Source: Escherichia phage phAPEC8. From it: a stretch of DNA of 64,000 nt. The position numbers and the translations under genes were made by a program. The stretch lies in sequence record NC_020079.1; one strand, written 5' to 3'. The notes beneath the pieces were generated by a model that worked only from the letters and a program-made list of their open reading frames with translations, ran no database searches and was not told the DNA's origin. Of the stretch, positions 21,038-27,520 are shown in pieces. Position 1 is the first letter of the stretch, and each line of letters starts with the position of its first letter.

Positions 21038-21090
21038 AAAAATGCCTCCAGGTATTTTTCACAATGATAAGCTAAGAACATTTTTCCTCC

Positions 21091-22218
21091 TTATTCTGCT
21101 GGTTCCCAAGTGCCTGGGATCATTTCTCGAATACGAACACCAACAGGTTTTGTTGGAATACCTTCATCTGAAAATTCTTCATACTCTATTTCAACGAACT
21201 GATTAATCAAGGTAGAAGCATTCTCTGCTTTACGATAATTGATAGTCTCATGAGCATCTTTACGCATTAAGAATTCGACTACTTTACCATTTTCCATCTC
21301 GCCTGTCAACACTCCATCACCATTTTTATCACTTTTTGAATTTATTACTTTAACTTCAAGCGTATGACGAGGCTTACGTTTAATAACATCATAAGAACGT
21401 TTATCAAATTCGTAAACTCCGTGAGCATTACGATATACTACACCTTCAGCTTTCTCAAGTAAAGCTTTTTCATAGAAAGCATCAAACTGTTCTTGGTTTT
21501 CAATATACTCTGTATGAACTACACAAATAAGCTCATCAAGACCATAATCCTCCACTACTGCCTTAAGAGCAGTAAGAACATCAACACGTTTTTCAAACGG
21601 TAGATCTGGAACTGGAATATCGTATACGTAATAGTTCAGCAAAGGTGTATTTGCATTATGCTTCTTCCAGGCACTGTTAATTTGTTGTAGACTAAGGACA
21701 CCTAACCCAGCAAACACTTCACCATCAAGAGGATGACCAACAACTTCACTAATAAAGTTTGGAATACCTTTCCAATGAGGTGGCAGGTTATACACTTCCC
21801 CAGCTTTTGATAAACACTCCCCTTTCATGTTAATCATAGAACGTAACCCGTTCAGTTTGTATTGTGCATAACCAGGGAACACAACCCTTTCAGGATAATC
21901 TTTATAATCCTGGCATTTCATTGGTGTGGAAGGAACATGGTTTTCAGCTTCTTCTTTTGTTTTATAATAGCCATTCTTTAACTGTTTTGTCCATTTGGCA
22001 AAAGCTTCAAGTTCAGCTTGTTCTTCCGGTGTTGTTTCATTGGAACGACCAATGTTTTTTGCTTCTGCTGTATAAGATTTTTCTGTGATTTTTCCACCTA
22101 CCCTTCCATGAGCTACAGTAACAACTGCACCATCTGTATACACTGTCCACTGTTTAAGTTTTCCTTTTGAATCTTTACCATACAGCGTTTGATTTGTTTG
22201 TTGCATTAGTCCTCCCAT
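21091..22218 (-). CDS. putative ATP-dependent DNA ligase (nucleotidyltransferase superfamily)
   Basis: KLNGLR at about residue 121 fits the ligase motif I Kx(D/N)GxR; 375 aa. Confidence 0.45.
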   Translation of the reverse strand: MGGLMQQTNQTLYGKDSKGKLKQWTVYTDGAVVTVAHGRVGGKITEKSYTAEAKNIGRSNETTPEEQAELEAFAKWTKQLKNGYYKTKEEAENHVPSTPMKCQDYKDYPERVVFPGYAQYKLNGLRSMINMKGECLSKAGEVYNLPPHWKGIPNFISEVVGHPLDGEVFAGLGVLSLQQINSAWKKHNANTPLLNYYVYDIPVPDLPFEKRVDVLTALKAVVEDYGLDELICVVHTEYIENQEQFDAFYEKALLEKAEGVVYRNAHGVYEFDKRSYDVIKRKPRHTLEVKVINSKSDKNGDGVLTGEMENGKVVEFLMRKDAHETINYRKAENASTLINQFVEIEYEEFSDEGIPTKPVGVRIREMIPGTWEPAE

Positions 22219-22538
22219 TTAAAAACTGAAATTTTCAATCTGTTACACACTTCATCCAAATCTGCGTCGAGTAACGTTGTAGATGTTGCCAACATATAAT
22301 CAATGCTTGTGAAACCTTGCCCTTTGGCATAGTCAAACATATCTTCATACATATCTTCTTCAGTCCCGAAACAGAAGTCACCCAAATGCCACATCTTGAC
22401 ACCTGGACTCGTAGCGCATTTATTCCATGCTTCGATCAGTGCTTCTGTCATGTGGTCCATATCTTCCCACGGTCGATATTCAGGAGCAAACTCTCGTATA
22501 CGTTTGTGCATAAAATGCAAATCACTTGTAATAAACAT
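22206..22538 (-). CDS. hypothetical protein with metallophosphoesterase-like N-terminal motifs
   Basis: SDLHFMH ... HLGDF motifs; only 110 aa. Confidence 0.3.
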   Translation of the reverse strand: MFITSDLHFMHKRIREFAPEYRPWEDMDHMTEALIEAWNKCATSPGVKMWHLGDFCFGTEEDMYEDMFDYAKGQGFTSIDYMLATSTTLLDADLDEVCNRLKISVFKWED

Positions 22539-24539: not shown

Positions 24540-24889
24540 TTCTTTTTGCTCCTCTTCTTAGATTTATCATACAAACCTAACACAGCAGCCTCTTTTGCAC
24601 AAGTAGGGACTGAAGTCATTCCTCTTCGCTTTGCATCGGGCAGGTTGAGCGTCCACCATCCGAACCAGTAGATTTGGTCTTCCGTGAGTGGTTCAGCCAT
24701 TGGATCTGCCTCCTGCTTCTCAAGACGTTGCAACGCTTCTTCAATCTTCTCAATTGGTGTGTCAAAGACGAATGCCTCCGTATCAAACTTATCTTTCTTA
24801 GGAACTGATTTGGCTACTTTGAGAACCTCGTTTTTCGGTTTCTTAGTAACGTTCTTTGGCTTTGATAACTTCTTCGGTGTTTTCGCCAC
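24536..24889 (-). CDS. hypothetical lysine-rich protein (117 aa)
   Basis: ORF track; very basic N- and C-termini. Confidence 0.35.
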   Translation of the reverse strand: MAKTPKKLSKPKNVTKKPKNEVLKVAKSVPKKDKFDTEAFVFDTPIEKIEEALQRLEKQEADPMAEPLTEDQIYWFGWWTLNLPDAKRRGMTSVPTCAKEAAVLGLYDKSKKRSKKK

Positions 24890-25693: not shown

Positions 25694-26164
25694 TCTAGCC
25701 TCCTAAACGCGTCTCTGACGCACTTTTTATATATAAGATGATAAATCACCTTACCTAGTAAGTAAGCTTGCTCTACGAGCCTCTTATGAAGCTTAAGTTA
25801 TACTATTGCTACCTGTTTAAGCAAGGTTTTGCACACAGAAAATAATTTTTAATAAAACTCTTGACTTTTGTGTTCGAAGTATGCTACCCTAGAAATCTAT
25901 TAACGAGCGCAGCGAGTTAAGGTTTTAGGTTGTTGATGTAGTACTCTGTACTAAAGCACTGTACTCCGTACTAGATTAATAATTATTAAATATTAATAAA
26001 TAATTATTAGATCTAACAAACAGGTACAGTGTATCAGAACTGGTACGTACATATCAACTTCTATCAATTAAAAAATAAAATAATAAATTATTATAAATAA
26101 TACTTGATCTATAAATCAGTATGAAGTACAGTACGTAACATCTTAACAAGAATGGAGGTGTGCA
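25694..26164. promoter_or_regulatory. divergent AT-rich control region between the leftward and rightward gene blocks
   Basis: About 470 nt without a credible ORF; GTAC-containing repeats (GTACTCTGTACT, CTGTACTCCGTACT, GTACAGT, GTACGTAC) and AT-only near-palindromes. Confidence 0.45.
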
Positions 26165-27142: not shown

Positions 27143-27217
27143 GGCCCTGTAGCTCAATGGGAGAGCTGTCGGCTCATAACCGATAGGTAGCTGGATCGAA
27201 ACCAGCCAGGGCCACCA
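27143..27217 (+). tRNA. tRNA-Met (anticodon CAT)
   Basis: Hand-folded cloverleaf: acceptor GGCCCTG/CAGGGCC, anticodon loop CTCATAA, encoded CCA; T-loop ATCGAAA. Confidence 0.7.
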
Positions 27218-27219
27218 AC

Positions 27220-27294
27220 GTCTTTATGGTGTAATGGATAGCACAGGAGTCTTCTAAACTCTTAGTCAAGGTTCGATTCCTTGTAAAGACACCA
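27220..27294 (+). tRNA. tRNA-Arg (anticodon TCT)
   Basis: Acceptor GTCTTTA/TAAAGAC, anticodon loop CTTCTAA, T-arm CAAGG-TTCGATT-CCTTG, CCA. Confidence 0.7.
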
Positions 27295-27490
27295 GAACAT
27301 TTTAACATGAATTAGCTCAAGTGATTTGAACCCACTACTGATCATGGTGGCAGAGAATGAGGCAAGTATGTCAGACATTATAAACAAAGGCCACGGTTAC
27401 ATTAGAAGACATAAATGCTCGAAGAGCACCGTTCGTGGAGAACGGGGGTTGGTGGAGTCACCATTCATGGTAAAATGTTTTAAAAAACTA

Positions 27491-27520
27491 TTGACAACTA
27501 ACATTATTTTATGTTAGATT
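27491..27520 (+). promoter_or_regulatory. sigma70-like promoter inside the tRNA operon
   Basis: CTATTGACA, 17-nt spacer, TTAGAT/TAGATT -10; a few nt upstream of tRNA-Ser. Confidence 0.45.

Follow-up and report, generated by a model that had tools for sequence, protein, structure and literature searches.

The minus-strand ORF at 21091..22218 of the window (the whole 64,000-nucleotide stretch of Escherichia phage phAPEC8, NC_020079.1) very probably encodes a phage ATP-dependent DNA ligase. [quoted passage not shown] The protein is an ordinary representative of the AsfvLIG-type ATP-dependent DNA ligases, which form a very large family in phages. The gene is already annotated as a DNA ligase in near-identical genomes, and its function is one expected of a phage.

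The ORF was confirmed and codes for 375 aa when counted from its first ATG. The text immediately upstream of the ligase ORF reads ...AAATGGGAGGACTAATGCAA. The second ATG, at 22206 (Met5), is probably the real start, which gives a gene of 371 aa plus the stop codon. This start is likely because it is preceded by the Shine-Dalgarno sequence GGGAGGA, because it overlaps the stop codon of the upstream ORF (TAATG), and because relatives of 371-372 aa are annotated from the same position. Residue numbers refer to the 375-aa version unless stated otherwise; renumbered from the likely start, the motif I lysine is K117 and the N-terminal domain has ~93 aa. The features assigned to the gene, all encoded by the minus strand, are the following (evidence in brackets):

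21091..22206 (longest ORF to the ATG at 22218), minus strand: probable ATP-dependent DNA ligase gene (ORF list, PHROG_114, annotation of relatives)
21928..22206, minus strand: predicted DNA-binding domain at the N-terminus, residues 5-97 (homology to the corresponding AsfvLIG domain; divergent WGR fold)
21367..21927, minus strand: adenylylation (nucleotidyltransferase) domain, residues 98-284 (PF01068; AsfvLIG, Chlorella virus ligase and Lig E aligned by profile)
21841..21858, minus strand: motif I KLNGLR, residues 121-126 (conservation; aligned to AsfvLIG KRNGVR and Chlorella virus KIDGIR)
21715..21729, minus strand: motif III LDGEV, with E167 invariant (alignment)
21685..21693, minus strand: S-L177-Q, site of AsfvLIG Leu211 and human LIG1 Phe635 (profile alignment, AsfvLIG PLQ versus family sLq)
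21616..21633, minus strand: motif IIIa YYVYDI, including D200 (alignment)
21430..21447, minus strand: motif IV EGVVYR, with E258 and G259 invariant (alignment)
21373..21387, minus strand: motif V VIKRK, with K280 and K282 invariant (alignment)
21094..21366, minus strand: OB-fold domain, residues 285-375 (AF2 beta-barrel strands 285-364; alignment to the C-terminus)
21124..21156, minus strand: motif VI variant P355-T356-K357-P358-VGVRIRE (profile alignments, co-variation tables)

The initial annotation had recognised a ligase-type nucleotidyltransferase with a KxNGxR form of motif I, and this description holds. The protein matches Pfam PF01068 (DNA_ligase_A_M) over residues 99-282 (E 1.2e-9, 38.6 bits for a cut-off of 26.2) and PHROG_114, "ATP-dependent DNA ligase" (E 2.2e-74), and a homolog is present in 1009 phage records that include rV5-like, Felix O1-like, Pseudomonas and Vibrio phages. 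KLNGLR is therefore not a chance motif. Partial matches to NCBIfam DNA-ligase models were also obtained, and the identical protein of phage EF1-1 is annotated as an ATP-dependent DNA ligase. Motifs I, III, IIIa, IV, V and VI are all present in canonical order in alignments of 17 and 58 relatives. Residues K121, G124, E167, E258, G259, K280 and K282 are invariant in these alignments, R126, L177 and Q178 are conserved in at least 90% of the sequences, and D200 is invariant in alignment A1 and at least 90% conserved in A2. K121 is the predicted AMP-accepting lysine, with N123 in the position usually held by Asp. Motifs III, IIIa, IV and V align with their counterparts in Lig E, AsfvLIG and Chlorella virus ligase; the initial annotation had named a lack of motifs III-V as the observation that would speak against its reading, and LDGEV, YYVYDI, EGVVYR and VIKRK all aligned. 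For the OB domain, PF14743 gives only a faint match in the query (E 0.051) but a significant one in family members, an OB barrel is present in the AF2 model, and the alignment with AsfvLIG and Chlorella virus ligase extends across motif VI. No biochemical test of any member of this phage ligase family was found in a literature search.

The best solved relative detected with the family profile is AsfvLIG (E 2.8e-36). The alignment pairs profile positions 37-364 with AsfvLIG residues 74-411 and takes in part of the N-terminal domain, while Chlorella virus ligase and Lig E come next (E ~1e-30) through the catalytic core only. The full-length AF2 model (pLDDT 94.7, pTM 0.85) finds its best Foldseek matches in the closed AsfvLIG:DNA complexes 6imk, 6iml and 6imn (E ~6e-24, TM 0.77, ~410 columns), whereas its TM to the open AsfvLIG complex 6imj is 0.48. 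The superposition on the closed complexes therefore indicates that all three domains are shared and that the model adopts a DNA-encircling arrangement. AsfvLIG (NP419L) and the phage protein both start with a DNA-binding domain of alpha/beta type and continue with adenylylation and OB domains. They have in common an Asn in motif I (N153 and N123, respectively), a nick-side Leu (L211 and L177), a pair other than R-F before the motif VI Pro, and the N-terminal DNA-contact loop KNxGKxNxTT with the Gln of the long helix. They differ by an overall identity of only ~21%, by ~35 more N-terminal residues in AsfvLIG, with extra strands and helices, by the chemistry of the motif VI pair (L402-Q403 in AsfvLIG, T356-K357 in the phage), and by the eukaryotic host of ASFV.

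The ligase of Chlorella virus PBCV-1 and Lig E (2q2t, 4d05, 6gdr, 8u6x; Foldseek E 1e-17 to 1e-18) share the adenylylation and OB_2-type core with all its motifs. However, they lack the N-terminal DNA-binding domain, PBCV-1 ligase using a latch and Lig E neither, and they carry a canonical KxDGxR motif I and R-F in motif VI. The ligases of T4, T7 and Rhizobium phage P10VF are likewise phage-encoded, ATP-dependent and of the same chemistry, but the DNA-binding domain is alpha-helical in the T4 and P10VF enzymes (PMC12121391) and absent from T7 ligase. All three are far more distant in sequence (profile matches: T7 1a0i, E 0.0028; T4 6dt1, E 8.4e-22, core only). P10VF ligase (9fzx) was considered as a closer phage structure and rejected because of its T4-like helical DNA-binding domain and a match confined to the catalytic core.

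An extra N-terminal domain, described initially as unrecognised, is indeed present, with ~97 residues ahead of the PF01068 match that starts at residue 99, but its relationships are visible: homology links it to the N-terminal domain of AsfvLIG and, from fold and profile evidence, it is assigned as a divergent WGR fold. It is predicted to form a four-stranded antiparallel sheet (residues 12-15, 21-29, 32-39 and 44-50), followed by the conserved loop K54-N55-I-G57-R58-S-N60-E-T62-T63 and a long helix (residues 64-81). A profile of residues 1-97 alone retrieved the AsfvLIG N-terminal domain (E 3.9e-4) and then the Bacteroides structure 2ra8 (E 0.02). The matched segment of 2ra8 (Q64V53) is a bona fide WGR domain (PF05406, E 6e-18), and direct comparison of the N-terminal profile with it by hhalign gave 94.9% probability (E 4e-8, 59 columns, 34% identity). 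PF05406 itself did not match the query at E up to 1, although WGR is the Pfam family most often matched, weakly, by the relatives (3/33, best E 9.3e-4). The WGR signature reads His-Gly-Arg (HGR) in the query; its first position is occupied by His, Tyr, Phe, Ser or Trp in 102 representatives, only 7 of which have Trp. The PARP1 WGR sequence gave no sequence signal against the N-terminal profile, and the link to PARP is one of predicted fold only. An RNase H match in the N-terminal domain (E 0.076, then 0.008) was discarded as a chance hit: it came from a single member, fell well short of the cut-off and had no fold support.

Classical WGR domains differ from the ligase-type domain by lacking a ~13-residue insertion, KNxG[RK]xNxT[TS], placed between sheet and helix and specific to the latter. 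This insertion (K54-N55-x-G57-[RK]58-x-N60-x-T62-[TS]63) is conserved in the family and is followed by an invariant Q67. The equivalents of the loop and Q67 in AsfvLIG are K85, N86, G88, K89, N91, T93, T94 and Q98. The crystal structures of AsfvLIG show the groove and backbone of the DNA contacted by the beta7-alpha3 loop and by the first part of the long helix, where these residues lie, and AsfvLIG without its N-terminal domain loses DNA binding and ligation (PMC6344480). By analogy, we infer that the phage N-terminal domain is the DNA-binding third of the clamp. Bacterial ATP-dependent ligases that contain WGR domains have been catalogued, and WGR domains are described as binding nucleic acids, RNA in some contexts (PMC7470946). 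PARP1/2/3 and MolR-like proteins are other carriers of the WGR domain.

The domain is widespread. Its profile matched 4,681 representatives (50%-identity clusters) at E up to 1e-3 among 1.84 billion, and in the best 150 of the 4,681 it is almost always N-terminal in proteins of 350-390 aa. Longer members of 715-785 aa (metagenomic) are the same ligase with an intein, inserted exactly inside motif I (KLDG / intein / C-R), that doubles the length of the protein. Intein-bearing relatives are P0127, P0134, P0168, P0200, P0238, P0195 and P0256, most of them with a LAGLIDADG homing endonuclease. Two other relatives depart from the usual organization. P0253 (273 aa) has an RNase H domain (residues 3-132, E 6e-31) and a ligase-type WGR-like domain (residues 182-268), after which it ends; this may represent another architecture or a truncation at a contig end. 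P0194 (228 aa) is extended by 88 aa at its N-terminus and has a true W-G-R motif (EWGRVGGK). A domain-only match in Salmonella phage GE_vB_B1 (H55), considered as a candidate stand-alone domain, was set aside as probably an assembly or frameshift artefact of an UNVERIFIED, unannotated 59.7-kb Felix O1-like record.

Viral structure predictions (BFVD) that share the domain are the DNA ligases of the pithovirus-like LCPAC001, LCPAC403 and LCDPAC02 and of a solivirus, as well as ASFV NP419L; the matches of the pithovirus-like and solivirus ligases to the domain reach 38% identity over 78 columns. The AsfvLIG-type architecture is therefore found in several giant-virus lineages, not in ASFV alone. 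A "WGR domain-containing protein" of Agrobacterium phage Atu_ph07 was also matched in BFVD. In print, the N-terminal domain of AsfvLIG is described as a "completely novel" fold that only ASFV possesses, and our literature search yielded no report connecting it with phage ligases or WGR. The distribution described above suggests that it is a WGR-derived nick-binding module common to thousands of phage ligases and to several giant-virus ligases.

The Asn of motif I has a precedent in AsfvLIG, whose motif I is KRNGVR and which is an active, structurally solved nick-sealing ATP-dependent DNA ligase (PMC6344480). N153, L211, L402 and Q403 are the nick-site residues of that enzyme that were called unique by the authors of the structures (PMC6344480). 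Profile alignment, checked against the numbering of the paper, places N153 at N123, L211 at L177 and P401-L402-Q403 at P355-T356-K357. The Asn and the Leu are matched exactly, and the phage protein has T-K in place of L-Q, likewise without R-F. The T356 and K357 sites correspond to R871 and F872 of human LIG1 and to the R-F of Chlorella virus ligase (P-R-F). In LIG1, D570 forms a salt bridge to motif VI R871, beside F872 (PMC6344480). The equivalent pair in LigIV is D275-R577, and the LigIV substitution D275A nearly abolishes nick sealing.

Position 123 is occupied by Asp in 98 and by Asn in 124 of 222 family members, and by nothing else; among 50%-identity representatives the count is 81 D versus 15 N. 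Asn forms mostly have T-K before the motif VI Pro, near Asp relatives have L-K or Q-K, and distant Asp forms have Q-F or R-F. The association of Asn with K357 has a Fisher p of ~0.002, calculated from raw counts that ignore kinship, and exceptions exist. Intermediates that combine Asp with L-K or Q-K, or Asn with x-F, led us to reject a strict pairing in two states, with T-K always beside Asn and Q/R-F always beside Asp. About 17 D/N changes are needed on a rough neighbour-joining tree. Given that number of changes and the restriction to D or N, Asn is therefore a recurrent, tolerated isosteric alternative within one orthologous family. As judged from these sequences, it is no marker of a different chemistry, but it could alter kinetics or metal use, by analogy with the effect of LigIV D275A.

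The window belongs to a Phapecoctavirus-like (phAPEC8-type) E. coli myophage, and the 6 kb around the ligase gene are 97-98% identical to SKA64, ASO2A and many others. Records named as Campylobacter, Acinetobacter or Klebsiella phages are also 97% identical to the region (for instance, Acinetobacter phage vB_AbaM_ABPW7 and Campylobacter phage B15), and the host labels of such records may be unreliable. The ligase gene is surrounded by genes of replication and recombination, coding a recombination exonuclease, a nucleotide pyrophosphohydrolase, an exonuclease and a DNA polymerase exonuclease subunit. Just upstream, sister phages encode a metallophosphoesterase, a T4 Rnl1-family RNA ligase and an AAA_33 kinase-like P-loop protein. 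Relative to EF1-1 and all other close relatives examined, ~2.3 kb is missing upstream of the phAPEC8 ligase gene. This stretch comprises the rest of the metallophosphoesterase gene, those of the Rnl1-family RNA ligase and the AAA_33 kinase-like protein, and three small ORFs, and it looks like an RNA healing-and-sealing cassette. The deletion breakpoint lies at 22352..22358, where the flanking alignments overlap by 7 bp, an apparent microhomology. It leaves, directly upstream of the ligase gene, a 110-aa in-frame fusion ORF (22206..22538) that joins the N-terminus of the phosphoesterase to the C-terminus of a small hypothetical protein. The junction was found in 0 of the 119 matching phage records. 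Comparison with EF1-1 revealed two other differences: an HNH homing-endonuclease gene (L001 941-1546) is missing at ~24572..24591, and ~140 bp are missing at 21071..21078, just downstream of the ligase gene. Eleven tRNA genes (Met, Arg, Ser, Tyr, Asn, Thr, Gly, Gln, Pro, Ile, Met) are found at 27143..29148 on the plus strand. This cluster lies just past a point near 26000 at which the GC skew reverses its sign and coding appears to pass to the other strand.

We infer ATP use, DNA specificity, nick sealing, clamp formation and the role of N123 from homology and the predicted structure, and the following sequence of events is proposed. Lys121 would attack ATP to yield the ligase-AMP intermediate, aided by motif VI of the OB domain as in standard ligase chemistry; the AMP would then be passed to the 5'-phosphate at the nick, and attack by the 3'-OH would seal it. 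The N-terminal domain would stand in for the helical DNA-binding domain found in larger ligases, with its long helix and KNxGRxNETT loop resting on the duplex so that the three domains encircle the nicked DNA. Asn123 might act as an isosteric stand-in for the motif I Asp, which in LIG1 and LigIV bridges the motif VI Arg on closure. The latter is missing in the clade (Thr356-Lys357), and the charged pair may have been replaced as a unit, as in AsfvLIG, where N153 is found with L402-Q403. The enzyme probably serves to seal Okazaki fragments and the nicks of recombination and repair in phage DNA, independently of the NAD-dependent LigA of the host.

The initial annotation considered the specificity uncertain between DNA ligase, RNA ligase and repair enzyme. 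This doubt does not hold in view of the presence of motifs III-VI, the activity of AsfvLIG with the same Asn, an N-terminal domain that can be recognised and an RNA-ligase profile that remains sub-threshold. It is very improbable that the protein is an RNA ligase, an enzyme of RNA repair or an RNA-splinted DNA ligase instead of a sealer of DNA nicks. The profile searches against DNA and RNA ligase families that had been proposed did return PF09414 (E 0.011), but at 16.3 bits for a cut-off of 27, while the DNA-ligase model PF01068 passes its own and PF09511 gave no match. The third residue of motif I is also not Asp in some RNA ligases, such as T4 Rnl2 with His37 (PMC6035275), and binding of RNA by certain WGR domains, mentioned above, would suit such an activity. 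However, the best sequence and structure matches are all DNA ligases, and an OB domain carrying motif VI, typical of DNA ligases, is present. Furthermore, the Rnl1-family gene of the sister phages (PF09511, E 5.7e-16), ~1-3 kb upstream, is separate from the ligase gene, which makes the joining of RNA a distinct function in this lineage. The RNA ligase reading was rejected on account of the sub-threshold PF09414 match and of this separate Rnl1-type enzyme.

A loss of activity caused by the Asp to Asn change, which would make the protein a pseudo-ligase or a DNA-nick-binding protein, is equally hard to credit. The severe defect of LigIV D275A is what such a reading would predict, but AsfvLIG is active with Asn and every other catalytic residue of the phage protein is intact and invariant. 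The Asn form is moreover kept, evidently by purifying selection, in over 100 distinct sequences, and the occurrence of Asp or Asn alone at position 123 indicates a constrained functional position. Less remote, though still unlikely, is a specialised repair ligase of relaxed fidelity like AsfvLIG, in which Asn123, Leu177 and Thr356-Lys357 would tolerate mismatched or damaged nick termini. Two of the four "unique" AsfvLIG nick-site residues are exact in the phage protein and the other two sites also lack R-F, in keeping with such a specialisation. Nevertheless, AsfvLIG swap mutants lost activity without a gain in fidelity, and their authors were unable to ascribe the low fidelity to those residues (PMC6344480). 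This region of the phage genome appears to hold no other DNA ligase gene, so that the enzyme probably serves replication too, and sister clades with Asp and Q-F hold the same genomic role. There is a somewhat better, but still small, chance that the sub-clade combining Asn with Thr-Lys has lost the Asp-Arg closing salt bridge, as AsfvLIG has, and hence forms ligases of naturally relaxed fidelity or unusual substrate. If true, the phage sub-clade could be useful as a reagent and as a tractable model for AsfvLIG.

An ordinary replicative and repair DNA ligase of AsfvLIG type thus remains the preferred reading of the phAPEC8 protein, and the family to which it belongs bears on the ASFV enzyme. 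The N-terminal domain and Asn153 of the ASFV ligase, proposed as drug targets for their supposed uniqueness, are both traits found in a very large family of phage ligases. The divergent WGR domain would be the same module that PARP enzymes use to sense DNA breaks. The ASFV ligase has already been grouped with ligases of bacteria and phages (PMC2806865), and the phage family described here would be an evolutionary source for the ASFV enzyme. The phage proteins, which are easily expressed, may serve to study how a WGR-type clamp and the D/N toggle of motif I affect nick recognition and fidelity.
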